Source: an uncultured Pseudomonadota bacterium
GTDB taxonomy: Bacteria > Babelota > Babeliae > Babelales > Vermiphilaceae
Length of the DNA: 64,000 nt
Assembly: GCA_964529835.1 (NCBI GenBank)
Contig: CAZGZQ010000002.1
Coordinates: forward strand, 9,341 to 73,340
Reading direction: 5' to 3'
The notes beneath the pieces are model-generated. The model made no database searches and was not told where the DNA came from. It saw nothing but the letters and a program-made list of their open reading frames with translations. Positions 2,446 to 60,526 of the stretch are shown here, one piece after another. A program made the position numbers and the translations under genes. Position 1 is the stretch's first letter, and each line of letters starts with the position of its first letter.

Positions 2446-3918
2446 ATGAATAAATATATTTTATATGTATCACTATTGATCATATCATGTTTTTTTATTA
2501 AAACAACACCAAACATTGTGCGATTACCTTCTTTTGCAGGACTATTTTACCCACAGGATCAAAAAAATCTTATTCAGACTATTAAAAATTTGGAGCAAAC
2601 AATAACGCTCACAAAATTTCAAAATTTCTCTGAACCAAAGATTTTAATTGTGCCACATGCAGGATACCCATATTCAGGACCAATCGCAATGCAAGGATAT
2701 GCAACAATAAAAGATCAACCGATTGAAACCTTTATTATTATCGGTCCTTATCACAAAGAAAATTTTTCAGGAGTTTCAATCTGGACTGAAGGAACATGGC
2801 AAACTCCATTGGGCAATATTGCTATTGATGAACAATTGGCAAAAGCAATTCAAAAACATAATACTCAGTTTAATTATAAAATAGACATTCACAATCAAGA
2901 ACATTCTCTTGAAGTTCAAATCCCATTAATTCAATATTTTTTTCCAAACGCACGTATTGTTCCTGTTTTAATCAGCGATTTGCATTATGCACAAGAACTT
3001 GCAAATGCTTTATACAAAACAATAACAACAACCAAAAAGTCAATCGCGTTAATTTTTTCAACCGATATGAGTCATTATCACAATCAAGAAACTGCATATG
3101 CAATTGATTCAGAAACAATTGAAATTTTAAAAAAAATTGATGCATCACTTTTTTTTGATTCAATGGTAAATCATAAAAGTGAACTTTGTGGAGCTGCAGC
3201 AGTTCAAACAGCCCTTTTGTTAGCTAAAAAACTTAAGAATCGAAACTTTGTATTGTACAACTATCAAACAAGTGGTGATATTACAAAATCCTATAATTCA
3301 GTTGTTGGATACGTAACTGCAGGACTTACTGAACGCGAAACATCTGGGAAAAATGACACGGTATTGCGCAATCCATCGTACTCAAAAGAAGAACAAAAAC
3401 AGATGCTTTCAATAGCTCGAACAACTTTAATTCATCATGTAACCAAAAAAGAGATTGCGCAATTTAAGCTCCAAGATCAATTTTTAAAAAAAGAAAAAGG
3501 AGTATTTATAACACTTTGGAAAAACAAAACAGAATTACGCGGTTGCATTGGCACCATCAATGCACAAGAATCATTACTTGAAGCAATAATCCACATGACA
3601 ATTAATGCAGCAAGTACTGATTCACGCTTTGAACCTGTAACTGCCAAAGAACTTGATTCCATAACAATCGAAATTTCTGTTTTAAGCACACCCAAACCAA
3701 TTGAATCAATAGATCAAATTATTTTTAAAAAACATGGAGTTATTATTTCAAATAACAACCATCAAGGAGTTTTTTTACCAGAGGTAGCTGAAAATTTTTC
3801 AACAAAAGAAGATTTTTTAAATACGCTATGTACTCAAAAAGCAGGACTTGCTCCTTTGTGCTGGAAAGATAAAAATACTGCCATAAAGACATTTACCACA
3901 GAATCATTTAAAGAATAA
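2446..3918 (+). CDS. Fusion protein: MEMO1-family (AmmeMemoRadiSam protein B-like) N-domain + AMMECR1 (protein A-like) C-domain, with N-terminal signal/anchor
   Basis: The MEMO motif IVPHAGYPYSGPIA and HSLEVQIP occur in the N half. The AMMECR1 hallmark LRGCIGTI and GVFLPEVA occur in the C half. The N-terminus MNKYILYVSLLIISCFFI is hydrophobic. Confidence 0.8.
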   Translation: MNKYILYVSLLIISCFFIKTTPNIVRLPSFAGLFYPQDQKNLIQTIKNLEQTITLTKFQNFSEPKILIVPHAGYPYSGPIAMQGYATIKDQPIETFIIIGPYHKENFSGVSIWTEGTWQTPLGNIAIDEQLAKAIQKHNTQFNYKIDIHNQEHSLEVQIPLIQYFFPNARIVPVLISDLHYAQELANALYKTITTTKKSIALIFSTDMSHYHNQETAYAIDSETIEILKKIDASLFFDSMVNHKSELCGAAAVQTALLLAKKLKNRNFVLYNYQTSGDITKSYNSVVGYVTAGLTERETSGKNDTVLRNPSYSKEEQKQMLSIARTTLIHHVTKKEIAQFKLQDQFLKKEKGVFITLWKNKTELRGCIGTINAQESLLEAIIHMTINAASTDSRFEPVTAKELDSITIEISVLSTPKPIESIDQIIFKKHGVIISNNNHQGVFLPEVAENFSTKEDFLNTLCTQKAGLAPLCWKDKNTAIKTFTTESFKE

Positions 3919-3927
3919 ATAATCTAT

Positions 3928-4386
3928 TTAATTTAAATAATAAAACGCACTATTTAATAAAAGCGCAAACAAAACCCATATAACATAAGGAATCCATAAA
4001 TAAAAAAGCATGCGATCTTTTATAACAAGCCAAAGAAACATCACCAAAAGTCCCCACAAAATAACAATATCAATCAAAGCAATTAAAAGAGCATGATAAT
4101 AAAAAAACAGTGGAGACCATATAAAATTTAAACTTAATTGCACAATAAAAAGCATCATTAATGTTGGATTTTTTTGTCTTTGCTTCCATACAATTCCTCC
4201 AACAATGCCAATCATAATATATAACACTGTCCATACAGGTCCAAAAACCCATGAAGGTGGACTAAAGAATGGTCTTTGTAAAGTTTGATACCACATTAAA
4301 TCAGGATCAACACTGAGGCCAAAAAACATTCCTAAAAAAAGACAAAGAAAAATTCCAATAATTTCTGGATAATATTTTTGAATCAT
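3928..4386 (-). CDS. tspO: TspO/MBR family tryptophan-rich sensory protein
   Basis: Motifs WYQTLQRPFFSPPSWVFGPVWTVLY, LNFIWSPLFF and the C-terminal PYVIWVLFALLLN are present. It has five TM helices and is about 150 aa. Confidence 0.85.
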   Translation of the reverse strand: MIQKYYPEIIGIFLCLFLGMFFGLSVDPDLMWYQTLQRPFFSPPSWVFGPVWTVLYIMIGIVGGIVWKQRQKNPTLMMLFIVQLSLNFIWSPLFFYYHALLIALIDIVILWGLLVMFLWLVIKDRMLFYLWIPYVIWVLFALLLNSAFYYLN

Positions 4387-5116: not shown

Positions 5117-5713
5117 TTACATCCATATATATTCATACTCACAAAAAACTTTATTTAGCAATTTTGATGCACGAATCCAAGCATCTTTATCAAGTAACTG
5201 AGGAATCTTTGCAGAAGGAAAAACATGAAACCATTTCAAATCAAAACCCCATTCAATACCGCCAAAACAATAAATCATTTTATTATCACGATCAATCCTT
5301 ACCGCAAAAGCATTACCTTTCCAAACACTTAATGGTTTTTGAAAAAAAGAATATGCCCACAAGGGTGCATCATAAAAATCTTTTTCATGGGTATAAAAAG
5401 GGTAAATAGAATTTTTTTGATTTGGATCTACACTATCAATAAAGACCTTATATTGTTCTAAAAAAGAATCAGTATAAACAACATGAATCCATCCATCATG
5501 CAAAAAATTTGTTTTAATATGTATAGTAGGGAAAAATGGGTTTAAAGAATTTTTTACATTATTTTCAATCAATTCAATAAAATATCCAAATCCATTTGAC
5601 GATATATATGAAAAATATTTTTTATTTGTTATTGAAGAATACATAGTAAAACAAAATGAAATTATGCATAATCCTATGAAGAAAAAAATCATCCACGCAT
5701 AGTTATTTTTCAT
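5117..5713 (-). CDS. Hypothetical membrane-anchored protein, translationally coupled to the upstream APH gene
   Basis: The ATG at 5713 (MKNNYAWMIFFFIGLCII) is preceded by AAGGAGG lying inside the last codons of the APH gene. The track ORF extends to 5755, but that start lacks an SD. Confidence 0.6.
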   Translation of the reverse strand: MKNNYAWMIFFFIGLCIISFCFTMYSSITNKKYFSYISSNGFGYFIELIENNVKNSLNPFFPTIHIKTNFLHDGWIHVVYTDSFLEQYKVFIDSVDPNQKNSIYPFYTHEKDFYDAPLWAYSFFQKPLSVWKGNAFAVRIDRDNKMIYCFGGIEWGFDLKWFHVFPSAKIPQLLDKDAWIRASKLLNKVFCEYEYIWM

Positions 5714-6590
5714 GCAAAACCTCCTTGATAATCTTTTTTTGCACGCATGCATCAAATCCAGTTTGATCTTTTATCTGACAGAGTTCAAATGTAGCCTTCC
5801 ACAAAGCCCAAGCACGTGCGCGAAGCCATGTATCAGAATCAAAATTCATTACATCGATAAAGATTTGACGAGATTTTCCAGATAAATAGGTCCATGCAAT
5901 TACAAGATCACAGGCAGGATCTCCAACGGCAACACCACCAAAGTCAATGACAGCAGATAATTTACGCCTATTCATCAGTATATTTCCAATCGCAAAATCG
6001 CCATGAATCCATATTGGGGCCTTATTCCATCTTGTCGCACAAGCCCTATTCCATAAAGCTAATGCTCGAGTTATATCTGTAATGTCAGCCAGCTGTCCAA
6101 TTTGTTCTCGCGCTTCTTTATCGTAAATACTGACATGATCACCGCGCCACCAGTTGTGTTGACCTGGCTCAGGTCCTTCAACATCAGTAATCGCCTGCAA
6201 CTGTTTTAAAAAATTTGCCAAATCAAAGGCAAGTTGTTCTTTATCTTGATCGGTTAACGTTAATAGGTTGATACTTTTTCCAGGCAACCATTTATATATA
6301 GAAAATGGATAAGGATAATCTGCAGATGGCTTTCCCATTTTAATCGGAACTGGAATGCTAACGCTTAAACGTTTTGCTAATTGCGGCAGCAGCTTTTGCT
6401 CTTTTGGAACTTTTAAAGCATAATCTACGGCTGTTGGCATGCGAATTAACATATCATTGCCAAGCCTATATGTTCGATTATCATGTCCTTGTTTTTCAAC
6501 ATCAACGACAGTTAAGCTGGCGTATTCTGGAAACTGATTAAGGATAAGTCTATGTGCAAGATCACGCGTAGGAAAAAATGGAAAATCCAT
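5703..6590 (-). CDS. Aminoglycoside/phosphotransferase (APH) family kinase
   Basis: It has DNRTYRLG near the N-terminus, the catalytic loop IHGDFAIGNIL, and VIDFGGVAVGDPACDL. It looks visibly more G+C-rich than its neighbours. Confidence 0.85.
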   Translation of the reverse strand: MDFPFFPTRDLAHRLILNQFPEYASLTVVDVEKQGHDNRTYRLGNDMLIRMPTAVDYALKVPKEQKLLPQLAKRLSVSIPVPIKMGKPSADYPYPFSIYKWLPGKSINLLTLTDQDKEQLAFDLANFLKQLQAITDVEGPEPGQHNWWRGDHVSIYDKEAREQIGQLADITDITRALALWNRACATRWNKAPIWIHGDFAIGNILMNRRKLSAVIDFGGVAVGDPACDLVIAWTYLSGKSRQIFIDVMNFDSDTWLRARAWALWKATFELCQIKDQTGFDACVQKKIIKEVLHEK

Positions 6591-18632: not shown

Positions 18633-19121
18633 ATGAAAATTCCAAATAACAATAATCAAATGAAAACAAACCTCCAAAAAGCTTGCTATATCGATTGGTT
18701 TAAGGGATATTTACTTGCAATTATTCCAACAACAATTATTGGTTTTTTTCCTTTACTAACGATTCTGATTCCTTCTGCAATAACAATAGAAAACAAATTA
18801 ACAGCTCATAAAACAGAATTTGGTATTCCAATTCTTATCTTAATATCGGTAATAATATTAATAATTATATGCGCAAGTGTAGCATTCACATCACTTTTCA
18901 TTTTCAAATATATATCCAAAACAATCAGTTCTTTTCTTACCATTCAAAGTAGTTTATTAGGAGTCTTTATCTTATGGATTTTAAAAAGATCTTATTTTAA
19001 TAGCTTTACCTCTTTTGTGGCATTTAACATTATTATTCTTTATGTGCTTGTTGTCTTTTATATCTACCTTGCCATAAAACTTGTTACTTACAAGATGACA
19101 ACAAAGCTCAAAAGTTTTTAG
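18633..19121 (+). CDS. Small multi-pass membrane protein, member 3 of the tandem family
   Basis: It starts MKIPNNNNQMK..YIDWFKGYL, followed by 4 TM helices and FIFKYISKTIS. The track start at 18588 is TTG; the ATG at 18633 has an upstream aaagg. Confidence 0.55.
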   Translation: MKIPNNNNQMKTNLQKACYIDWFKGYLLAIIPTTIIGFFPLLTILIPSAITIENKLTAHKTEFGIPILILISVIILIIICASVAFTSLFIFKYISKTISSFLTIQSSLLGVFILWILKRSYFNSFTSFVAFNIIILYVLVVFYIYLAIKLVTYKMTTKLKSF

Positions 19122-19195
19122 TTCACGTTGTTTGCACATCAAACTTGATTTTTATTCAATTTATTATACAATAAATCTGCTATTATTTCATTTTT

Positions 19196-19281
19196 GCCGG
19201 AGTGGCGAAATGGTAGACGCACGGGACTCAAAATCCCGCGGTGGCAACACCGTGCCGGTTCAAGTCCGGCCTCCGGCACCA
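19196..19281 (+). tRNA. tRNA-Leu (anticodon CAA)
   Basis: The sequence is GCCGGAGTGGCGAAATGGTAGACGCACGGGACTCAAAATCCCG..GCCGGTTCAAGTCCGGCCTCCGGCACCA. The anticodon loop is CT-CAA-AA and the variable arm is long. Confidence 0.9.
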
Positions 19282-19389
19282 AAATCCATTTACATTATTC
19301 TACTTTTGTTAAACAACTCTTTCTTGTTTTCTGTAAAATAATTGATATAATTCGTCCACAATATCCTTGTATAATTCAATGGAGAAAAA

Positions 19390-19728
19390 TTGGTGGATAA
19401 TTGTATCTTTTGCAAAATTATTGCAAATCAAGTTCCTGCAAAAAAAATTTTTGAATCTGAAACAATTATCTGTATTCAAGATATTAATCCAAAAGCTCCT
19501 ATTCATTATTTAATAATTCCCAAAAAACATTGCGTAAATGTTTCATCACTCTCTCATGTTGAAAAAACAATTCCTTTTGATATGTTTTGCGCAGCAAAAG
19601 AGCTTTCAAAAATAAACCACAATCATACAGACTATCGACTAATCATTAATAATGGAACAAAAGTAGGGCAATCGGTACTTCATCTTCATATGCATTTTTT
19701 AAGCGGAACAATTCTATCAGATTTTTAA
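19390..19728 (+). CDS. HIT (histidine triad) family nucleotide hydrolase
   Basis: It has CIFCKII, APIHYLIIPKKH and the histidine triad HLHMHF. GGAG lies 6-8 nt upstream of the TTG/GTG start. Confidence 0.85.
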   Translation: MVDNCIFCKIIANQVPAKKIFESETIICIQDINPKAPIHYLIIPKKHCVNVSSLSHVEKTIPFDMFCAAKELSKINHNHTDYRLIINNGTKVGQSVLHLHMHFLSGTILSDF

Positions 19729-19747
19729 TAAAAAGGATTAAATAATA

Positions 19748-20716
19748 ATGAAAAATATTTTTTTATCTTTTATTACAGGTATTGTAACACAAGCATGTAT
19801 GTGTGCAGAGACAGAACTCGATTTAAAAAAATACATTGTCCGTGACTATACTCAACTCAGTTACGAGCAAAGAAAAGAGTATGCAGGAAATGAAATTGGC
19901 AAAAAATTATTTGAAATTATGCATACAAAAGAAACAAACATTGCAGTTGCTCTTGATATTGAGTCCCTTGAGCAAATTATAAACATTGCCACACTTATTG
20001 GGCCATATATTTGCTTACTTAAAATTCATGCTGACACTTTGAAAGATTTTTTTTCAGAAAATCAATCTAGTCTTACATCTTTTGATTCAGAAAAATTTGT
20101 ACTTAAAAAAATACCTTTAATTCATCAATTAAAAACGATTGCAAATCAACTGAATTTTTTAATTATGGAAGATCGAAAATTTGCTGATATTGCAAGCGTT
20201 GTTGAACAACAATACATTGGTGGAACATTTCAAATAGCAGATTGGGCAGATCTTGTTACCGCTCATTCGCTTGCAGGACCTGGAATGATTGAAGGGATGC
20301 AAGAAGCTTTAAAAAAAGCAAATATCAAAGACCCACGTGGTGTTATTATCCTTCCTCAAATGAGCACAAAAGATAATTTACTTACACAAGAATATACTCT
20401 TAATACACTGATGCAAATTATCAAATTAATAGAAGGTAAAAATTCACTTCCAACAGGGCTTATCACTCGAAGCAAAATTCATTTTAACAATAAACAACTT
20501 GACTACGGTATGCTGCGTATGACACCAGGAATTGGATTATCTGAACATACAAATAAAGATCAGCAATATATCACACCACAAAAAGCATTTGAAAATCTAG
20601 GTACAGACATTGCAATTGTGGGAAGAGCTATCTACAATTCAAACAATCCAATTGAAACAACAAAACATTTTAAGGAAATATGTTGGACTGCATACAGTAA
20701 TAGAACTAAGACATAA
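19748..20716 (+). CDS. pyrF: Orotidine-5'-phosphate decarboxylase, eukaryote-type, with N-terminal signal-like peptide
   Basis: Motifs present are KETNIAVALD, GPYICLLKIHAD, MEDRKFADIASVVEQQYIGGTFQIADWADLVTAH, LPQMST, LRMTPGIGL and IAIVGRAIY. They track human UMPS/yeast URA3 blocks such as FEDRKFADIG and WADLVNAH. The N-terminus is MKNIFLSFITGIVTQACMCA. Confidence 0.85.
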   Translation: MKNIFLSFITGIVTQACMCAETELDLKKYIVRDYTQLSYEQRKEYAGNEIGKKLFEIMHTKETNIAVALDIESLEQIINIATLIGPYICLLKIHADTLKDFFSENQSSLTSFDSEKFVLKKIPLIHQLKTIANQLNFLIMEDRKFADIASVVEQQYIGGTFQIADWADLVTAHSLAGPGMIEGMQEALKKANIKDPRGVIILPQMSTKDNLLTQEYTLNTLMQIIKLIEGKNSLPTGLITRSKIHFNNKQLDYGMLRMTPGIGLSEHTNKDQQYITPQKAFENLGTDIAIVGRAIYNSNNPIETTKHFKEICWTAYSNRTKT

Positions 20717-20808
20717 TACATAAATATAATTTTTTAATCTTATACGTGAAAACAAAGCTGCTCTCTTTTGCTTTCTTTGTATATTTATGAAATAATAACT
20801 TCATTGAG

Positions 20809-21618
20809 ATGTATTTCAAAATAATGTATAAAAACTTTATCATGACTTATTTAAGATTTTTAATTTATTTATTATTCCTATCCCAATCAATAATGAACAT
20901 GGAAAGATCTGAAGGTCTTGCAGACAAAGCATTAGCTCAGATTATTGCATATAAAAAAACCTTAACTGGTCTTTCTGTTCCACTTGATTTGCTAGAAAAT
21001 ATTTTACCCGACATTCCTTCTATTGCACCGTATATATGCTGTATAGAAATTATCATGAAAGAATTAGATTATAATAAAAAATGGAATACAATAAATACAA
21101 TAAAAGCATTATCTATAAAACATAACTTTATGCTCATTGCAGAAGATAATTTTTTTAAAGAAAGTAGCTATAGACAAAACTGTACATGGGCTGATTTTGC
21201 AACGGTTATGAATTTTGAAGATATTATTGCATTAAAAGAAATTTTATTAGAAAAGCAAATAAAAGCTCCACGTGGAGCCTTTGTTAAAGTACAACAACTT
21301 AACAAAATATTTCCGCATACTACAAATATGATGCTAGAAAAAATAAAAAACAGCCAAGACCCATTTATTATAGGGGTAATGCACATTACTGATATTAACC
21401 ATAAATATAGCCATCTATTAAAAATAAGCGAAGAAAAAATTCCTTTAAATCTTGATATTGAAAAAATTTACTCTCTTTTCCAATATCTTATTGCATTCAG
21501 AAGGACAGATATTTGTTTGCTTAGTCTTTCTAATCCTTCGGATTTAAATAAAATTTCTAATTTATCAAATTTTTACTTTAACATTTATAAATTAACAAAT
21601 TTTTCTAATACTTTATAA
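20809..21618 (+). CDS. Degenerate OMP-decarboxylase-like paralogue (catalytic residues lost)
   Basis: It is collinear with 19748-20716. APYICCIEIIMKEL aligns to GPYICLLKIHADTL, IAEDNFFKES to MEDRKFADIA, and CTWADFATVM to IADWADLVTAH. Both catalytic Lys residues and the DxKxxD motif are missing. Confidence 0.6.
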   Translation: MYFKIMYKNFIMTYLRFLIYLLFLSQSIMNMERSEGLADKALAQIIAYKKTLTGLSVPLDLLENILPDIPSIAPYICCIEIIMKELDYNKKWNTINTIKALSIKHNFMLIAEDNFFKESSYRQNCTWADFATVMNFEDIIALKEILLEKQIKAPRGAFVKVQQLNKIFPHTTNMMLEKIKNSQDPFIIGVMHITDINHKYSHLLKISEEKIPLNLDIEKIYSLFQYLIAFRRTDICLLSLSNPSDLNKISNLSNFYFNIYKLTNFSNTL

Positions 21619-21660
21619 CAAAAAATATACTTAATTTTTAGTTTTTCTTAAATTATATAC

Positions 21661-23025
21661 CTATTTTTTACGTGATAACTTTGTTTTTAATTTTTTTTGT
21701 GGTTCTTTTTTTGGATCCCATGCAATAATGACTATTGATTGATCACCTTGTATCTTGCCAATCTCTTTTACAATAATTTCTTTTGTAGTTTTTTGTTTTA
21801 AAAACCACCCCTTAATTTTTTGAAAAAATGATTTTTTCTGAACAATTTCAGGATTAATAAATGAACTCAAGTTAAATTTTTCTTTTTGAACGGTTGCAAC
21901 ATGAAGCAACTCGGTTGCAAGTTGAATCGATTTATCAGTAAGTCCATATTGGGTAAAGACTGATTCAACAATATGTGTTGCAATTTCTGCTGATCCCAAA
22001 CGATTACAATGATGGTCAACAAGCACTTTATCATTGGCATGATTTTCATCTTCATCTACAGCAGCACTGCATGCAGCAAAATCCCATGAAAAATAATCTT
22101 GAATACGAGTAGGCAACGATTTCCATACATCATTATTTGCTATAATAATAAACCGATACCCACTCAATGCTTTAGTATTATGCTCATTTCCTTTTCTTGT
22201 TAGTGCTTTATTTTTTGCATAAAGCTGGAAATCCATTTTTTTTAACGATTGCGCAACCGGAAAAAATTCTATATCAAAATCATGCGAGGTGGTTGCAAGT
22301 AGTTTGAAATTATAATCAAAAATAGAAACATCTGGTTCTGCAGTAATTCCGGCAAGTTTTGTGTTGCCAAACATTCGACTTATCCACCAACGCGCAAACT
22401 GATTATTATCTTTTTGAAAAAGTGTATTATTTTGAACAATTCCACCAGCTTTTTCAATTCGCTTTTTTTCATGGGGTAAAAAAGGCTTGTGATCATGCGT
22501 CATAATTGAATTCAAATCAGAACTTACTGCGCGACTATCACCAACATGCGCAACAACAATTTTATCCGGTAAGAAAAGAGTCACAACTCCAGAAGAATAA
22601 CTTTGTGTATCTGCAAAATTAGTTTCATTAAAAGTAAGAAAAATTTCTTTTACTTTTTTTATCAATACATCATTTGATGTTTTATGATTTACAATTATTG
22701 GATCTTCAAGCAAATCAAAAACCAATGCATTGTATGACAAACGAGCTAATGGCAAAACTTGCTCTAATTTTTGCTCCGTATCAACAATACCAAAAATTTC
22801 ATTTACATTAAAATGAGCAATACCATATGCAGACTGACCTGAAGATAAATTTTTTTTATAAAGCTTTATTTGCTTATTATCTCTATCTGAAGTATTGCTC
22901 ACATCGCTTATACTTAAAAAACCATCCTGTTTTGAAAGCTTAACTTTTGCACTAAATGAGCCCCAAACAACATCTTTGCCACTTATATGTAAAAAAAAAA
23001 GAAGTAATAATAAAATTATATTCAT
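21661..23025 (-). CDS. PP2C (PPM) family Ser/Thr phosphatase with signal peptide
   Basis: Motifs present are FGIVD, VVAHVGDSRAV, HDHKPFLPHEKKRIEKAGGIV, RMFGNTKLAG..EPDV, IIANNDVW and GDQSIVIIAW. The signal peptide is MNIILLLLLFFLHISG. Confidence 0.8.
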   Translation of the reverse strand: MNIILLLLLFFLHISGKDVVWGSFSAKVKLSKQDGFLSISDVSNTSDRDNKQIKLYKKNLSSGQSAYGIAHFNVNEIFGIVDTEQKLEQVLPLARLSYNALVFDLLEDPIIVNHKTSNDVLIKKVKEIFLTFNETNFADTQSYSSGVVTLFLPDKIVVAHVGDSRAVSSDLNSIMTHDHKPFLPHEKKRIEKAGGIVQNNTLFQKDNNQFARWWISRMFGNTKLAGITAEPDVSIFDYNFKLLATTSHDFDIEFFPVAQSLKKMDFQLYAKNKALTRKGNEHNTKALSGYRFIIIANNDVWKSLPTRIQDYFSWDFAACSAAVDEDENHANDKVLVDHHCNRLGSAEIATHIVESVFTQYGLTDKSIQLATELLHVATVQKEKFNLSSFINPEIVQKKSFFQKIKGWFLKQKTTKEIIVKEIGKIQGDQSIVIIAWDPKKEPQKKLKTKLSRKK

Positions 23026-23084
23026 GATAAAACCTCAAAACCCATTTTTATTGAATCTAGAAAACAATTGAAAAATTAGTCAAT

Positions 23085-23122
23085 AAAAAAAAGTGCTGCT
23101 CTTTTTTCAAAGAACAGCACTT
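23085..23122 (-). terminator. Rho-independent terminator after the DEAD-box helicase gene
   Basis: On the minus strand, agtgctgttcttt-gaa-aaagagcagcact forms a 13-bp stem with one G-U pair. A T8 run follows. Confidence 0.75.
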
Positions 23123-23147
23123 ACAAAATAGTATTTAATCAAAGCTT

Positions 23148-24827
23148 TTAAAAACGATCATTATCCCGATGAGATGAATTTCGCTTTTTAAAAGAATCTT
23201 GTTGATCAAAAAAACTTATTCGTGAACGATTTTTATCATTTGATGATGATCGACGACGATCAGTACCAAAAGCAGATGATTGATCACGAGAAGAACCATT
23301 TTCAGATGAACGATTCCACTTATCCTGATACGATTTTTTATGTTCAGTACCACGATTCATAAATCCATCAGTTTTTTTAAATCCTTCAGACTTTCTTTCA
23401 GCTCTAAACATTGATCTTTGTTCATCACTTGCAGGCTTTACAAAACCATCGCGAGGAACAAAAGAACTATCTCTTGATGCATCATTTGAGCGAGATCGTG
23501 AAAATCTACCCCCAAAAGATCCACGTCTTTCATCTTCAAAAGATTTAGAGCTACCACCACCGCCGCCATTACGACCAGCACCACCATATCTTTTAAATCT
23601 ATCTTGACCACCACCGCGTGCGCCACCACGACTGCCGCCAAAACCACGCGATGAAAAACGTCCACCACCACGATAGTTATTGCCATATGAAGAGCCTTCA
23701 GACTCACTCCCTGCTTTTCCAGGATTTAACATCCGATCAATTGCAACCCATAAACGCTTTTCATGAGGAGCGATCAAACAAACTGCAGCACCTTGAGCAC
23801 CAGCACGAGCCGTTCTTCCAATGCGATGAATATAATCTTCAGCACATTGTGGCAAATCATAATTAATTACAAGTTTAATATTTTGAATATCAAGACCACG
23901 GGCTGCAATATCAGTTGCAACCAAAATACGAAATCTCCCCTTGCGAAATCCAAGCACAACAGACTCACGTTTACTTTGGCGCAAATCGCCGTGCATTGCT
24001 ACTGCCAAGTGATGATCCTCACTTAACCTCTCTGCAAGCCGAGCAGCTCCCATTTTTGTTTTCACAAAAACAATAATTGCACCTTCGTTTTGATTAAGCT
24101 GAGTAACAAGAGCTTCGTACTTTCCATGCTCTTGAACATGAATAATTTCTTGAGTTATATTTGCAGCAGGAGTACTCACTGGACCAACAGAAATCCGAAC
24201 CGGAGTTTTAAGATATTTTTGGGCACGTACCTCAATTTCTTTTGGTAATGTCGCTGAAAACATCATTGTTTGACGATTTTCGCTTAAATGGCTAATAATC
24301 TCTGCAACCTGTAAATCAAAGCCCATGTCAAACATGCGATCCATTTCATCCAAAACGAGAAAAGTAACCTGCTTTGGATTATATGTACCCTGCTCTAAAT
24401 GATCAATGATACGACCAGGAGTCCCTACGACAATTCGAGGATTTGCACGAAGCTGACGATACTGCCTAAAAATTGGTTCACCACCAATTAAAAGAGCTGT
24501 CATAATTCGTAAATCTCGACCAATCAATGTCTGCAAAGCTTGCTGAACTTGTGTTGCAAGTTCACGAGTTGGCACAACAATCAATGCACAATCATGCTGA
24601 TTTTCAAGAAGGCGTGCAAGTAATGGAATAGAAAACGCAAGCGTTTTACCAGTTCCAGTTTGCGCAGAGCCCAAAACGTCCAAACCTTTTAACGCCACAG
24701 GAAGCACTTCTTGTTGTATTGGCGTCGGATGTATAAATTTATTTAATGTCAGCGCATTTAGAATTGAACTCGGCACTTCAAAGTGCTCAAACAATGCTAC
24801 TGACTCTTTGATTTGATCTTTATTCAC
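23148..24827 (-). CDS. DEAD-box ATP-dependent RNA helicase with ~190-aa RGG/Ser-Arg-rich C-terminal tail
   Basis: Motifs present are AQTGTGKT, PTRELA, VLDEMDRM (DEMD variant of motif II), SAT and HRIGRTARAG. The tail reads YRGGGRFSSRGFGGSRGGARGGG...RSRSNDASRD. The GTG start lies 3 nt after the csp stop. Confidence 0.9.
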   Translation of the reverse strand: MNKDQIKESVALFEHFEVPSSILNALTLNKFIHPTPIQQEVLPVALKGLDVLGSAQTGTGKTLAFSIPLLARLLENQHDCALIVVPTRELATQVQQALQTLIGRDLRIMTALLIGGEPIFRQYRQLRANPRIVVGTPGRIIDHLEQGTYNPKQVTFLVLDEMDRMFDMGFDLQVAEIISHLSENRQTMMFSATLPKEIEVRAQKYLKTPVRISVGPVSTPAANITQEIIHVQEHGKYEALVTQLNQNEGAIIVFVKTKMGAARLAERLSEDHHLAVAMHGDLRQSKRESVVLGFRKGRFRILVATDIAARGLDIQNIKLVINYDLPQCAEDYIHRIGRTARAGAQGAAVCLIAPHEKRLWVAIDRMLNPGKAGSESEGSSYGNNYRGGGRFSSRGFGGSRGGARGGGQDRFKRYGGAGRNGGGGGSSKSFEDERRGSFGGRFSRSRSNDASRDSSFVPRDGFVKPASDEQRSMFRAERKSEGFKKTDGFMNRGTEHKKSYQDKWNRSSENGSSRDQSSAFGTDRRRSSSNDKNRSRISFFDQQDSFKKRNSSHRDNDRF

Positions 24828-25322: not shown

Positions 25323-25925
25323 ATGACCTCACAAAGCAGCCCCATAATTAAAAATTCATCTTTTTTGTTAATTTTGTGCCTTATTCTTTTAATTTCAGCT
25401 AAATTTACTTATACAATGGAAAATAATCTGTCAAAAACAGTTCATTGTCAAAACTTTTTCAAGCAGTCTCTTACCATGGTGACTAATATTATAAAAACAT
25501 ATGTAAAGGACTCTTCAAGCTACTTAAAAGAAAAAATTCCTACAAAAATGCAAAAGTCATTTTACTGGAAGAATTCATTCATCAATGGCTTTAAAACAAA
25601 CACCGCTTTTGCTCTTTTTGCAACATTTGCATACCCTCTTAATATTGTAAGCGGTAAAAAAGCCATTCTGTTACAAACCCTTTTTATTATAAAAAACATT
25701 ATTTGTTTAAGAATGTTTTCAAATAACTCAGATAGCACATATTGCAGCTGTAAATCTTATGATAAAAAATCAGTGAATTTTGATCATGCAATATTTCTTA
25801 ATGACTTTATCGCACCATATAGTGTAACTTTACTTGGCACTGGTTTATTATATGGAGGAATGAAACAAATAATACAATTAACTCATAAAACAAGTGTTCA
25901 TCAACTTTTTTCAACTATCACTTAA
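25323..25925 (+). CDS. Hypothetical membrane protein
   Basis: The N-terminus is the hydrophobic segment FLLILCLILLISA, and further hydrophobic helices follow. No motif was recognised. Confidence 0.5.
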   Translation: MTSQSSPIIKNSSFLLILCLILLISAKFTYTMENNLSKTVHCQNFFKQSLTMVTNIIKTYVKDSSSYLKEKIPTKMQKSFYWKNSFINGFKTNTAFALFATFAYPLNIVSGKKAILLQTLFIIKNIICLRMFSNNSDSTYCSCKSYDKKSVNFDHAIFLNDFIAPYSVTLLGTGLLYGGMKQIIQLTHKTSVHQLFSTIT

Positions 25926-26956
25926 TTTAAAAAAGCATTTCGTAGAAAAATTAACAATTTTTCAGCTTCTTTTAATGCGCAAATACCCGCACGATAGCAC
26001 CACTCAGGATTTTTATCTTCAAAAACATCATTCAAAAATTCAGTCAATGGCTTTACATAAAAAACATTTTGTTGAGCTTGTATAGAATTTTTATCAGCTA
26101 TTTCAAGCATCCAAAAAGCAAACTTTGCACAAACAAACGCTTTAAATATAGCAAACTGAAACAAATCGTGCTGGCTTATCTGTCTATTCCAATATTGCTC
26201 TAATAAGTATTTTTCTTCTTGTTTATCACAACCAAAAAAAACTGCTAAATGAGCTAAGTCAACATACGGATGATCATAACGAACAGTTTCAAAATCAATA
26301 AGTTTGATTTTTTCATCATAAAAAAAAATATTAAGTCGATGCAAATCTCCATGAACTAGAACAGGTGCTACATTTGTATCAATGCAAGACTCAAAAAACG
26401 CCAATAGCTCTTTTAATGGAATGAGATTCATTCCACAAAGTTTATTCTGTTTTAAAACATATGAAAAACGCTTATTTATAATCGAAGTAAATACATCTTG
26501 TTGTCGACGCACAACAAATTCATCAGTTGATATTTCATGAATTTTTTTTACGCAAGAAAGCAATAGATCAATTTGCTTATAACGGTCTAATGAAACCTTA
26601 TCGTATTGCGATGGAGTCAAGTATTCCATAATAATAATACCTGCCTGTGCATCTGAATATATTACTTCTGGACCAAAACCTTCCTTTTCTGCATATTGAT
26701 GAAAAGCAATCTCATTCATACGACCAGGAGTAAAAAATTTTTCATTAAATCGAACTATGCATGATTTGTTGGCATAGTCAACTTTATAAATCAATGGCTC
26801 TTTATCCTGTGACTTTAAAACATTAAAAGTATAAGGACCTTCATAACCAGTAATGCCGAATAAAATATCAACAATCTGACTTCGTTTATCGATTAATTTA
26901 ATTGGTTTTGCAAAACAATAATTAAAAAAAGAAATTAAAAAAAATAAAACAAACAT
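25922..26956 (-). CDS. Protein-kinase-like fold phosphotransferase (APH/choline-kinase family) with signal peptide
   Basis: It has the catalytic loop LVHGDLHRLNIFF and LIDFETVRYDHPYVDLAHL. The N-terminus is MFVLFFLISFFNYCFA. Confidence 0.7.
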   Translation of the reverse strand: MFVLFFLISFFNYCFAKPIKLIDKRSQIVDILFGITGYEGPYTFNVLKSQDKEPLIYKVDYANKSCIVRFNEKFFTPGRMNEIAFHQYAEKEGFGPEVIYSDAQAGIIIMEYLTPSQYDKVSLDRYKQIDLLLSCVKKIHEISTDEFVVRRQQDVFTSIINKRFSYVLKQNKLCGMNLIPLKELLAFFESCIDTNVAPVLVHGDLHRLNIFFYDEKIKLIDFETVRYDHPYVDLAHLAVFFGCDKQEEKYLLEQYWNRQISQHDLFQFAIFKAFVCAKFAFWMLEIADKNSIQAQQNVFYVKPLTEFLNDVFEDKNPEWCYRAGICALKEAEKLLIFLRNAFLN

Positions 26957-45386: not shown

Positions 45387-46091
45387 TTATTCTCTTTTTT
45401 TTCCTAAAAATTGGAGCATGTATATGAATATATTTATAAAGTTAAGATACAATGTAAGTGCTCCAAGCAAAGCAACCTTACTATATGCTTGATGATCTGA
45501 TACTTGTGACAAAATATGCTTAATTCTTTGAACATCATACGCCGTTAACAAAGCAAAAATAAAAATTCCAATTGCAGCTACTGTTAACTCAAAAACAGGA
45601 TTGCTTGTAAAAATAGTAATAATATTTGCAACCACAAGACCTATCAATCCCATCAATAAAAAGGAACCCCAACTACTTAAATCAGAATTAGTTACATATC
45701 CATATAAGGCCATAATCCCAAACATTAAAGCTGCGGCACCAAAAGTTGTTGCAAGCGATGCTCCGGTATAAATAACAGCTAATGTTGAAAGACTTAACCC
45801 CGTTAAAGCAGAATACCCTATAAAACAACTTGCTGCTGCCGCAAACGACAATTGCTGAATCATTGAAGAGAGAGCTACTACAAGTCCAATTTGAATAAGA
45901 AAGACACCAAAAAAAATTGTTGGATTTTTGAATAAAAATGAAAGAATTGAGGGATTACTTACAACAAATAAAGCAACTGTTGCAGTGATTAATAAACCAA
46001 AAGCCATCCATCCATAAACACCAGCCAACGATGGTTCTTGAGCGTACATCATATGATCATTACCCATATAATACTTATTGTTGTAATTCAT
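45387..46091 (-). CDS. Bax inhibitor-1/YccA family membrane protein
   Basis: It has seven TM helices, GVYGWMAFGLLITA and the C-terminal LYLNFINIFIYMLQFLG. Confidence 0.8.
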   Translation of the reverse strand: MNYNNKYYMGNDHMMYAQEPSLAGVYGWMAFGLLITATVALFVVSNPSILSFLFKNPTIFFGVFLIQIGLVVALSSMIQQLSFAAAASCFIGYSALTGLSLSTLAVIYTGASLATTFGAAALMFGIMALYGYVTNSDLSSWGSFLLMGLIGLVVANIITIFTSNPVFELTVAAIGIFIFALLTAYDVQRIKHILSQVSDHQAYSKVALLGALTLYLNFINIFIYMLQFLGKKRE

Positions 46092-58303: not shown

Positions 58304-60526
58304 ATGTATATTTTGATATTTTCTTTTATTTTTTTTCAAAACACAAAAGGAATGACATTTGATCAATGGAATGCATATAGTAAAACTATTCCTGAATTTC
58401 CACAACTAAGCGACCCAGAAAAACCAAATTGGCTTGATCCTGATTATGATAATTTTTTGGAAACAATACGACCATCATTTATTTCCAGGTTATTGCAAAA
58501 AAGGGGAATACAATTTCAAAAAACATGGACTCCTCTTTTTTTTAAAAACATTTTAAACAAGGTAACTGAAAATCGTCTTATTAAAAAATATGATTACAAT
58601 ACCGTTGCATTGTTAAGCATAAAAGAACCGGTCAACATATTTATTTGGGGAGACACTCATGCAGCATTTCATGCACTACTAAGGGGACTTTCGTGGCTAA
58701 AAGAAAGAAATATTATTGACGAAAAAGGCAAAATATTAGATAAAAATACTTACTTTGTATTTCACGGAGACCAAATCAGCCGTGGTCCATATTCAATGGA
58801 AACATTAAGCTTAATAATGCAAATGCTTGATGAAAACCCAGAACATGCCCTTTATATTAAAGGAAATCATGAATCTAACGGATATTGGCATAATTTTGGA
58901 CTTAAACGAGAATTGCGTATTCGAGGGTTACATCTTGATAGCAATTTTATACCATTAAGCCCAACAATAAAAAAATTTTTCAAAACATTACCAAACATAT
59001 TTTGCATTAATACACAAAAAGAACCAAATCGTTATATTGTTTTCAATTTCAATGGACTTGAAGAACCTTACATTAAAAAATTTAGCCTGTCTGATCAAAC
59101 AGAAATAAGATTTGAACATCATGATTCAATCGATACAAAAACTCTAGAAGAAGGATCATTTGTAGAAGCTGTTATCAAAACAGAAGAATGGACTAAGCAA
59201 CATCGTGCTAAAAATGGACTAGGGCTCCTTGATCAAACCTTTGGCGCAACAACCTGGGCCGTCCTTTCTTCGCCTATTGAAATCCATAAAAAATATTATG
59301 GCTTAAATAATGATGCATTTTGCAAAATTAAAATTGATCCAAACGAGATTCAAAAAAGTACCATCGAGCTTTACACACACCCATTAACAGATTCATCGTT
59401 ACAATTTAACATCACCGAAAGTTATAATTTAATTACAGCACGACCTCTTTCACATCCTCAACCAGAACCCCAAGGGCCAGACATTGTTATTGGTTCAAGT
59501 CTTTCTTTGCTTCAGGGAGTTACGATTATGGGAACACACGTCAAATCAGGTATTAGTATTGCGATTAATGAACAAAATCAGGCTGGAGGAATTAATGGAA
59601 GACATATTCGTTTTTTTCCTTTAAACGATGATTATACTCCTTATAAAACAAGAAAAAATATCGATTTTTATTTAAAAAATAATATTACTGATATTTTAAT
59701 TTGTTCAACAGGAAGTCCAACTCTTGAAGGATCTATCGATTATATTAAGGACAAAAAAATTGCTCTTATTGGACCGGTAACAGGCGATCCACTTTTTGCA
59801 AATCCTTATTTAAAGGGATTAATTAATCTAACAGGGTCATATGATATTGAAGTGCAAGCACATCTGGAAATACTTATTAAAGAACATGCAGCAAAAAATT
59901 TTGCTTTTTTTTATCAAATAGAAGGATTAAGTGCTGTGATGAAAAATGTACGGGCTATATTACAAAAGAATGGAATTACACAATGGCTTGAAATTCCCTA
60001 TTCTCGTGGAAGTGTTAATTTTCAAAAAGAGTCTCAAAAACTTAAATCAACTCAAATTGATGCCATCGGAATTTTGGCTGTTTCGCAAGCAGGACAGGCA
60101 TTTATTAGAGAGGTTACATTAGAATATTTAAGTACTAAAAAAATATTTGGTCACTCGTTTGTTGGTGACGAATCATTTCATGAATTTATTAAACATAAGG
60201 GACTTTCCATTCAACTTTCAACTCGCGTGCCAAACGCGTATACAAGCGATCTTGCAATCGTTCAGCAATACAGAGAAGTAATGGAAAAAAATGGTGCATC
60301 ATGCAGTGCAGATTCCCTTGAAGGATATATAACCACACGATTTTTAATAGATATCATGAAAGAGTGCCTTCCCAATATAAATAAAGATACAATTTTGAAC
60401 AAAATAGAATCCCTTAAAAATTTTAAATGGAATGGGTTAACATTCAATTTTGATGAAAAAACAAGAAGACTTTCAAATATTATTTGGATTGAAAAAACTG
60501 ATGGGAAACTGATACAAATCAACTAA
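58304..60526 (+). CDS. Secreted fusion: degenerate PPP-type metallophosphoesterase domain + type-I periplasmic binding protein (LivJ/Peripla_BP_6-like) domain
   Basis: It has the signal MYILIFSFIFFQ. The PPP-like blocks are IWGDTHAAFH (GDxHG-like), FHGDQISRGP (GDxxDRG with Ser for Asp) and KGNHE. The C half has IVIGSSLSL..G..SGISIAINEQNQAGGINGRHIRFFPLNDDYTP, a LivJ-like signature. Confidence 0.7.
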   Translation: MYILIFSFIFFQNTKGMTFDQWNAYSKTIPEFPQLSDPEKPNWLDPDYDNFLETIRPSFISRLLQKRGIQFQKTWTPLFFKNILNKVTENRLIKKYDYNTVALLSIKEPVNIFIWGDTHAAFHALLRGLSWLKERNIIDEKGKILDKNTYFVFHGDQISRGPYSMETLSLIMQMLDENPEHALYIKGNHESNGYWHNFGLKRELRIRGLHLDSNFIPLSPTIKKFFKTLPNIFCINTQKEPNRYIVFNFNGLEEPYIKKFSLSDQTEIRFEHHDSIDTKTLEEGSFVEAVIKTEEWTKQHRAKNGLGLLDQTFGATTWAVLSSPIEIHKKYYGLNNDAFCKIKIDPNEIQKSTIELYTHPLTDSSLQFNITESYNLITARPLSHPQPEPQGPDIVIGSSLSLLQGVTIMGTHVKSGISIAINEQNQAGGINGRHIRFFPLNDDYTPYKTRKNIDFYLKNNITDILICSTGSPTLEGSIDYIKDKKIALIGPVTGDPLFANPYLKGLINLTGSYDIEVQAHLEILIKEHAAKNFAFFYQIEGLSAVMKNVRAILQKNGITQWLEIPYSRGSVNFQKESQKLKSTQIDAIGILAVSQAGQAFIREVTLEYLSTKKIFGHSFVGDESFHEFIKHKGLSIQLSTRVPNAYTSDLAIVQQYREVMEKNGASCSADSLEGYITTRFLIDIMKECLPNINKDTILNKIESLKNFKWNGLTFNFDEKTRRLSNIIWIEKTDGKLIQIN

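Follow-up and report, generated by a model that had tools for sequence, protein, structure and literature searches.

A leader-bearing UMPS-type OMP decarboxylase and its diverged tandem paralogue in a conserved gene cluster of a probable Babeliales bacterium

Why would a bacterium encode an orotidine 5′-monophosphate (OMP) decarboxylase of the kind found in eukaryotic uridine 5′-monophosphate (UMP) synthase (UMPS), with a hydrophobic stretch at its N-terminus and no other pyrimidine gene around it? The question is raised by a gene at positions 19748..20716 of the 64-kb stretch of contig CAZGZQ010000002.1 that was analysed here (the window). OMP decarboxylase (OMPdecase) is a textbook cytosolic housekeeping enzyme. 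What is new at this locus is a leader-bearing, probably active OMPdecase that is accompanied by an apparently dead tandem paralogue in a conserved, probably Babeliales, gene cluster. The reading that we put first, with confidence and doubt in about equal measure, is that the window protein is a Sec-exported, probably active UMPS-type OMPdecase, that it belongs to a lineage-specific exported family, and that it serves a pyrimidine-auxotrophic parasite.

Family, fold and active site

The gene and its parts are laid out as follows.

19748..20716, plus strand: UMPS-type OMP decarboxylase gene, 322 amino acids (open reading frame (ORF), PF00215, TIGR01740, PDB matches, AlphaFold/Foldseek)
19733..19737, plus strand: Shine-Dalgarno-like AAGGA, 10 nucleotides 5′ of the ATG at 19748 (read from the sequence; kept in the related contig L089)
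19748..19807, plus strand: leader, residues 1-20 (MKNIFLSFITGIVTQACMCA), signal-peptide-like or signal-anchor-like (hydropathy, model and homologue comparison)
19808..19852, plus strand: acidic/basic linker between leader and barrel, residues 21-35 (per-residue model confidence (pLDDT) below 50 at residues 19-30; homology from about residue 36)
19853..20707, plus strand: (beta/alpha)8 OMPdecase domain, residues 36-320 (PDB alignments over 36-319, model secondary structure)
20048..20119, plus strand: lineage-specific insertion of about 19-24 residues (residues 101-124, FFSENQSSLTSFDSEKFVLKKIPL; alignment and model)
20171..20188, plus strand: catalytic D142-x-K144-x-x-D147 motif, corresponding to yeast D91, K93 and D96 (residue table and numbering check)

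The window protein is an OMPdecase family member on every sequence and structure criterion applied. Its translation contains all of the UMPS/URA3 blocks that the initial annotation had quoted (KETNIAVALD, GPYICLLKIHAD, EDRKFADI, QQYIGGTFQIADWADLVTAH, PQMST, LRMTPGIGL and IVGRAIY) as well as the leader. PF00215 is its sole Pfam match (E 2.6e-44, 152 bits against a cut-off of 27, residues 63-306), and the TIGR01740 pyrF model scores 141 bits against a cut-off of 92.3, whereas the classical bacterial PyrF models fall below their equivalog cut-offs (PRK00230, 55 bits against 193; PRK13813, 51 bits against 208). The closest PDB sequences are the coffee, yeast and human OMPdecases (E 1e-42 to 1e-49, query residues 36-319). 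The AlphaFold model (pLDDT 90, predicted TM score 0.86) predicts a (beta/alpha)8 barrel that superposes on the plant, human and yeast enzymes with template modelling (TM) scores of 0.90-0.92 and a root mean square deviation (rmsd) of about 2.1 Å; the Foldseek match to 8u0z has E 7e-27, TM 0.92 and rmsd 2.2 Å. Archaeal and Bacillus subtilis enzymes reach TM 0.70-0.80. The ranking of PDB matches, the PRK00230 score and the TM values bear out the earlier assignment to the UMPS/URA3 type rather than to the common bacterial PyrF.

Compared with the OMPdecase domain of eukaryotic UMPS and yeast Ura3 (8u0z, 2qcd, 1dqw), the window protein is alike in subfamily and fold (32-36% identity), and it has the identical catalytic Asp-Lys-Asp-Lys-Asp set and phosphate gripper Gln/Tyr/Gly-Arg. 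Unlike eukaryotic UMPS, it has no fused orotate phosphoribosyltransferase (OPRT; PF00156) and is therefore not a UMP synthase; it also differs in its leader and linker of about 35 residues, its insertion, a Val in place of T100, and its bacterial genome. Within the alignment the insertion is confined to the window protein and its orthologues P0001 and P0002, and it is modelled as a beta-hairpin (strands 110-113 and 118-121, pLDDT 74-83). Classical bacterial PyrF (PRK00230; B. subtilis 1dbt, Coxiella 3tr2) has superfamily, fold and reaction in common with the window protein and is only remotely similar to it: the B. subtilis and Coxiella enzymes were retrieved in the PDB sequence search at E 1e-6 to 1e-8 only, and they superpose with TM 0.70 (1dbt) and 0.68 (3tr2).

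Residues were numbered by alignment to yeast Ura3, whose sequence was checked against the PDB alignment. By this numbering D37, K59, H61, D63, D91, K93, D96, S154, P202, Q215, Y217, G234 and R235 are all kept (window residues D70, K92, H94, D96, D142, K144, D147, S206, P260, Q272, Y274, G292 and R293), T100 to Val being the single change among the residues compared. P0001 and P0002, which are 80-81% identical to the window protein, keep the same catalytic and binding set. The ratio of nonsynonymous to synonymous substitution rates (dN/dS) is 0.36 between the window OMPdecase and its L089 orthologue, against 0.08 for the neighbouring helicase. Given the intact active-site set, its retention in both orthologues and this ratio, the window OMPdecase is likely to be catalytically competent.

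An eroded paralogue in a conserved cluster

The features that we regard as most informative, an adjacent dead paralogue and a conserved gene cluster, had both been missed by the initial annotation. The genes concerned are these.

19390..19728, plus strand: HIT-family gene, 19 nucleotides upstream of the OMPdecase gene, no leader (PF01230/PF11969)
20809..21618, plus strand: diverged tandem paralogue, 269 amino acids (gene callers: start 20824, 264 amino acids), likely pseudoenzyme with an OMPdecase fold and a leader
21661..23025, minus strand: PP2C phosphatase, 454 amino acids, strongly hydrophobic leader (MNIILLLLLFFLHISG), convergent with the cluster (PF00481, E 3.8e-18)

The paralogue has no match in a Pfam search, but its descent is visible in several comparisons. 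It matches the window OMPdecase by BLASTP at E 8e-7. Only seven relatives were found among 1.84 billion representatives, and in three of these relatives the N-terminal half scores above threshold for PF00215. When the three most degenerate members were combined into a profile, hhalign aligned it to genuine OMPdecases with 96.7% probability (E 3e-10). Its AlphaFold model has pLDDT 89, and the top 32 Foldseek matches in the PDB are yeast, human and coffee OMPdecases (E about 1e-12, TM 0.65-0.70), a fold result that was partly guided by the true OMPdecases in the input alignment. In yeast numbering the active site carries K59E, D91E, K93N, D96K, S154L, Q215Y and R235N, whereas dN/dS against the L089 orthologue is 0.37, indicating purifying selection. 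The paralogue is thus likely, as judged from its sequence, to be an OMPdecase-derived pseudoenzyme that selection maintains.

Erosion of this sort runs through the family. All key residues are lost in the window paralogue (ORF2), P0263 and P0271, and P0264-P0269 keep DxKxxD and lose the ribose and phosphate binders. A hydrophobic helix begins the window paralogue, and most paralogues have a leader, including the degenerate ORF2, P0263, P0268, P0265 and P0269. Two members are longer: P0265 (501 amino acids, L180:1-1993) and P0269 (484 amino acids) have an extra 220-250 residues or so N-terminal of the OMPdecase-like domain, a region that may be another decayed repeat of the same fold. In the partial orthologue upstream of P0265 in L180, as in P0004, VGS replaces the phosphate-gripper VGR.

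The block in which these genes lie has the order HIT, OMPdecase, paralogue(s), PP2C (minus strand), DEAD helicase (minus strand) and cold-shock protein (minus strand), and the part from HIT to helicase recurs in four related lineages. Copies were found in identical Logan contigs, in L089 (a lineage 81% identical), in the contig of P0005, where two further ORFs lie downstream and one of them matches PF00215, and in L180, where a partial OMPdecase orthologue is followed by the 501-residue degenerate P0265. HIT and OMPdecase are also adjacent in L089 and on the P0005 contig, and the two genes are probably co-transcribed. A promoter scan of 19000..23300 gave promoter-like sites below the shuffled expectation, and a terminator scan of the same interval gave none between the genes; both results are uninformative on operon structure.

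The drift of paralogues to non-catalytic forms leaves room for a role in binding or in dimer poisoning. The active sites of UMPS OMPdecases are built across the dimer interface, and the window protein itself might be a non-catalytic exported effector that sequesters OMP- or UMP-like nucleotides or pairs with the OMPdecase domain of host UMPS, its catalytic residues being incidental or kept for ligand binding. Consistent with such a role, fold and leader are kept while the family drifts from catalysis (ORF2, P0263, P0271, P0264-P0269, P0005, P0004 and L180), and the evolutionary rate is raised, as it typically is in genes for host interaction. However, none of the ten catalytic and binding residues has been lost from the window copy or from its two close orthologues, a conservation for which selection for catalysis is the simplest cause, and the interaction with a host protein is hypothetical. 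We consider this explanation quite unlikely for the window copy.

A leader ahead of the barrel

The initial annotation had also pointed to a hydrophobic leader and to possible export. The leader is a real in-frame extension and export is plausible, a view that comparative data strengthen; the protein's own cleavage site is weak. We judged leaders by heuristics, namely the 10-residue Kyte-Doolittle maximum, the length of the uncharged run and the residues at −3 and −1. By these measures the window protein begins with MK followed by an 18-residue uncharged run from residue 3, and its Kyte-Doolittle maximum is 2.52, compared with 3.17 for BamA and at most 1.8 for cytosolic controls. Its N-terminus resembles that of BamA and differs from those of GroEL, Rho, PolA, HIT and P0045, an OMPdecase encoded in a pyrimidine operon. 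AlphaFold predicts a lone low-confidence helix over residues 2-18 and then a disordered linker over residues 19-30.

Comparison across the family argues most strongly for function. The first 35 or so residues of the window protein extend ahead of the conserved N-terminus of the family; ordinary homologues lack the extension, and a typical stand-alone prokaryotic homologue begins right at the conserved ‘LSYxxRA’ N-terminus. A leader is present in all full-length members of the window protein's clade (P0001, P0002, P0004 and P0005) and in the sister sequence P0011, and among some 80 prokaryotic homologues recovered by metagenome searches the same heuristics flag no more than 2-4. The leader sequences themselves are not conserved (MLLSLLLACLFMATSIHA/SD and MKFFHLLIVLFSTISMISEASA/TK in orthologues, MKRHGTVLCALMIMNLVSSAWA/ME in P0011, the slash marking the candidate cleavage site). 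The strongest case for a functional leader is this maintenance of a physicochemical feature without conservation of sequence. Candidate cleavage sites in the window protein are weak (TQA/C, after residue 16; CMC/A, after residue 19), and clearer ones are found in distant clade members and the sister (SIHA/SD, EASA/TK and SAWA/ME). We also considered a lipoprotein, which was rejected because there is no lipobox ([LVI][ASTVI][GAS]C): T-Q-A-C and A-C-M-C in the window protein and T-H-V-C in P0001 fail at −3/−2.

The leader would be an annotation artefact if translation began instead at Met18 (MCAETELD...), and the product would then be an ordinary cytosolic OMPdecase. There is indeed an in-frame ATG at codon 18, conserved in P0001 and P0002, and the leader DNA of the window and that of L089 are 94% identical, too close for conservation to separate coding from non-coding sequence there. 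The AAGGA motif, however, lies 10 nucleotides before the first ATG, beginning 5 nucleotides after the HIT stop codon, and no comparable motif precedes Met18; the HIT stop codon itself is just 19 nucleotides upstream of the first ATG. In L089 the start has moved by one codon with frame and leader kept, and in P0004, P0005 and P0011, which have leaders, there is no equivalent internal start. A start at Met18 is highly improbable.

An organism probably without pyrimidine synthesis

The window is bacterial and diderm (PolA, BamA, Rho, GroEL/ES, MsbA, OmpH, SecF and PBP are encoded), has about 32% GC, and carries tmRNA and four tRNAs. It most likely belongs to Dependentiae/Babeliales, as judged from protein similarity, because the best named relatives of its GroEL come from Candidatus Dependentiae and Babeliales bacteria (78-79% identity); a few GroEL matches are closer but carry evidently mis-binned names (Bathyarchaeia, Patescibacteria group).

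Family searches detected no OPRT, aspartate transcarbamoylase, dihydroorotase, dihydroorotate dehydrogenase (DHODH) or carbamoyl phosphate synthetase among window ORFs of at least 100 amino acids, and no match to PF00156 (OPRT) in any window ORF. The statement that the window holds no other pyr gene is therefore borne out for ORFs of that length. The initial annotation had added that the gene would be harder to explain as housekeeping if the organism lacked de novo pyrimidine synthesis, and that condition agrees with what is reported of the phylum Dependentiae, which is described as having no nucleotide biosynthesis (PMC4776705, PMC6561590) and is also credited with a very large secretome. For TM6, nucleoside and nucleotide uptake is reported in place of synthesis, together with components of type II secretion (PMC4776705), and in Chromulinavorax destructans 44% of coding sequences have a predicted signal peptide and many are candidate effectors (PMC6561590). 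The organism is probably a parasite that is unable to make its own pyrimidines.

Proposed export and role of the window protein

From the family, fold, intact residues, additional N-terminus, paralogue and conserved cluster that the DNA displays, we infer the following course. Translation would start at 19748, and the leader would target the OMPdecase to the Sec translocon and might there be cleaved. With its putative Sec-type leader, the enzyme would be active outside the bacterial cytoplasm, in the periplasm or, by way of a type II system or vesicles, in a host compartment. One candidate component of such a route is encoded upstream.

14304..15497, plus strand: type II secretion/type IV pilus platform protein, GspF/PilC family, a possible route beyond the periplasm (PF00482, E 2.3e-30)

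The enzyme would form part of a tandemly duplicated, leader-bearing family of a Babeliales (Dependentiae) sub-lineage, dead paralogue included, and would exploit the late pyrimidine pathway of the host, from which its substrate would be drawn, by converting OMP to UMP or by binding such nucleotides.

Several observations weigh against this proposal. The window leader is the weakest of its clade, with polar residues in the h-region and a poor −3/−1 site, and the leader of the orthologue P0001 lacks a basic n-region. The same heuristic finds a hydrophobic N-terminus in 23 of the 58 window ORFs (about 40%), so the prior is high and specificity modest, although the recognisable cytosolic housekeeping proteins of the window are all negative. 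A Sec leader by itself delivers to the periplasm only. The search for pyr genes covered the 64-kb window, and pyrE or other pyr genes could sit elsewhere in the genome. The distant orthologue P0004 and the L180 copy have R235S, and P0005 has K93Q (and also S154G), which suggests that some family members have not maintained canonical catalysis. Finally, in hosts with a fused UMPS the intermediate OMP is channelled and of low abundance, and free OMP is scarce, so that the gain from extra decarboxylase activity is not obvious.

The same gene might be a housekeeping or salvage PyrF that works on the cytoplasmic side of the membrane, its N-terminus being an uncleaved anchor or neutral, with a pyrE elsewhere completing orotate salvage. 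The fully intact active site fits this explanation, as does the ordinary housekeeping role of UMPS-type PyrF in many prokaryotes; moreover, on contigs L145, L094 and L096 (see below) an OMPdecase gene adjoins an OPRT gene, as in a pathway operon. It sits poorly with the absence of pyrE or any other pyr gene from the 64 kb, with the upkeep of leaders of unrelated sequence across diverged orthologues and paralogues, and with the difference in dN/dS between OMPdecase and helicase, and dead paralogues under purifying selection make no sense under it. We think a housekeeping role unlikely.

The proposal of an exported enzyme can be taken further, in a form that we advance tentatively and consider rather doubtful: the Dependentiae sub-lineage may have turned OMPdecase into an exported, host-directed family of one active enzyme and dead derivatives, which would rewire or poison host UMP synthesis by supplying OMPdecase or by forming mixed dimers with host UMPS, and leader-bearing pairs of OPRT and OMPdecase in other bacteria would be a convergent version of it. 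An exported OMPdecase, if real, would be a new kind of metabolic effector, tandem-duplicated into pseudoenzymes, in an obligate parasite thought to be without pyrimidine synthesis, and it would open a concrete way to study how host nucleotide metabolism is tapped by Dependentiae and perhaps by Legionellales-like bacteria with leader-bearing pairs of OPRT and OMPdecase. The significance of the locus would rise substantially with a demonstration of export and host-directed function.

Origin of the gene

The UMPS type of the protein, with its lack of pyr neighbours and its leader, had been taken initially to suggest acquisition from a eukaryotic host. That claim is not supported. OMPdecases of the UMPS type occur as stand-alone proteins of 250-270 amino acids on dozens of prokaryote-dense metagenome contigs (coding density 0.8-0.97, compared with 0.13 for a eukaryotic contig), and P0045 lies in a carB-pyrB-pyrI-pyrC-pyrE-pyrF operon of the bacterial assembly GCA_030425295.1. 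Because the ‘eukaryote-type’ enzyme is this widespread in prokaryotes, similarity to UMPS is not, by itself, evidence of transfer from eukaryotes, a caution that extends beyond this locus. Over the trimmed domain the window protein is 43.5% identical to P0045, its top match outside the clade together with P0011, and 37-40% identical to named eukaryotes, no higher than to prokaryotic members. Like the window protein, stand-alone prokaryotic UMPS-type PyrF (TIGR01740, such as P0045) is single-domain; it differs in having no leader and in lying in pyr operons or beside pyrE, whereas the window gene encodes a leader, lacks pyr neighbours and adjoins a dead paralogue.

Neighbour-joining trees of 41 and 100 sequences, built by a crude distance method without protists and with unsupported deep nodes, place the query clade (100% bootstrap) on a separate deep branch. 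The clade is nested neither in arthropod, plant or fungal sequences nor in any prokaryotic group, and its only recurrent sister is P0011, a leader-bearing bacterial sequence (61%). The OMPdecase-domain phylogeny thus returned a deep separate branch with no eukaryotic sister among the sequences sampled; given the crudeness of the trees, this position does not establish a bacterial origin either. Scanning metagenomes with a profile of the clade brought no additional close relatives (at most 39%) but supplied the prokaryotic diversity for the tree. A genome scan for close relatives returned no Dependentiae genome, only UMPS of Weeksellaceae/Flavobacteriaceae at 32-36% identity to the query. Recent transfer was also considered on grounds of composition and was ruled out, as the gene has a GC fraction of 0.316 and the window 0.32.

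Direct capture from a host UMPS gene nevertheless has points in its favour: the best database matches outside the clade are eukaryotic UMPS (35-40% identity), the protein is structurally closest to the plant, human and yeast enzymes, and Dependentiae live in protists, which the trees do not sample. They are countered by an identity to prokaryotic members that is the same or higher, by the failure of the clade to nest in any sampled eukaryotic group, by the lack of an OPRT remnant or compositional anomaly, and by an age of the gene sufficient for duplication and divergence across four lineages. We find the sequence comparisons to give direct host capture no support beyond a family-level resemblance, and we judge it improbable.

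Unusual architectures accompanied the UMPS-type domain in these scans. L001-L080 (for example, L008 and L017) are loci for fused OPRT-OMPdecase proteins of about 452 amino acids in Weeksellaceae/Flavobacteriaceae (Chryseobacterium, Epilithonimonas, Riemerella, Cruoricaptor and others), the bifunctional UMP synthase architecture that is usually regarded as eukaryotic. L119 and L123 (also L120 and L127) encode proteins of 731-832 amino acids with a UMPS-type OMPdecase at the C-terminal end, and the PyrK/ferredoxin-reductase-like N-termini of L119 and L123 suggest multi-domain pyrimidine-pathway fusions.

Precedents and comparable loci

Intracellular bacteria such as Legionella secrete scavenging enzymes through the type II system; these metabolic or hydrolytic enzymes are exported by a Sec-dependent route and act on host-derived substrates. 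We know of no OMP decarboxylase among the described type II-secreted substrates, and the likeness of the window protein, whose secretion is predicted, is one of concept only. Our literature searches found no description of exported OMPdecases or OMPdecase pseudoenzymes in Dependentiae. Queries on OMP decarboxylase with Dependentiae/TM6, and on UMP synthase with horizontal gene transfer or Legionella, likewise found nothing; the sole passing precedent is a table entry that lists an OMPdecase-motif gene among the eukaryote-motif effector candidates of Ca. Rickettsiella viridis (PMC6016236). For Berkiella, an ordinary pyr pathway is reported in its paper.

Loci of another kind came to light on contigs that we label Legionellales-like after a neighbour gene matching PF05150 (Legionella_OMP). 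On L096:1224-2692, L097, L098 and L094:4117-5777, overlapping genes encode OPRT and UMPS-type OMPdecase (P0075, P0086), both with clear signal-peptide-like N-termini (for example, MKKCLICFLLISSFCFA/EVR and MKKAVIFLLTLCSFAAA/EEK). Judged by these N-termini, the pair could be an exported two-enzyme UMP synthase. Like the window, the L094 and L096 loci come from a presumed intracellular bacterium and encode a UMPS-type OMPdecase whose N-terminus is signal-peptide-like; unlike the window, they have a leader-bearing OPRT directly upstream and no degenerate paralogues, and their OMPdecases, about 41% identical to the window protein, do not group with its clade in the trees. On a further bacterial contig with gyrA and dprA-like genes, L145:4272-8795 encodes a leader-bearing ankyrin-like protein, a DHODH-like protein, OPRT (MRIYLLSILITGTCM...) and OMPdecase (MKNLFVIVGASMLITPSS...); the last two genes share a 4-nucleotide overlap, and both of their products begin hydrophobically. 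This set is either an orotate-to-UMP branch with hydrophobic N-termini or another exported set. There are hints here that exported UMP-synthase halves recur in intracellular bacteria.

Other genes of the window

In related contigs the PP2C phosphatase at 21661..23025 invariably converges on the OMPdecase cluster. Eukaryotic PPM1K/PP2C proteins head its PDB matches, its dN/dS is 0.38, and it is a likely exported effector candidate. On its other side the cluster is bordered by a tRNA gene.

19196..19281, plus strand: tRNA-Leu(CAA), directly upstream of the HIT-OMPdecase block (ARAGORN, Rfam)

Two APH/choline-kinase-like phosphotransferases are encoded on the minus strand (25922-26956 and 5703-6590), the former with a signal-like N-terminus (MFVLFFLISFFNYCFA/KP) and within the same synteny block in L089 and L180. 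A MutS-related protein (15548-17527, plus strand) has weak MutS_III/MutS_V matches and two predicted N-terminal transmembrane segments, and it occupies the same position in L089. A 740-residue protein (58304-60526, plus strand) combines calcineurin-like phosphoesterase and periplasmic-binding-protein domains behind a hydrophobic N-terminus. A eukaryote-associated flavour is also lent to the window by a Memo and AMMECR1 fusion with a hydrophobic N-terminus (2446-3918, plus strand), a TspO/MBR protein (3928-4386, minus strand) and a Bax-inhibitor-1 family protein (45387-46091, minus strand).

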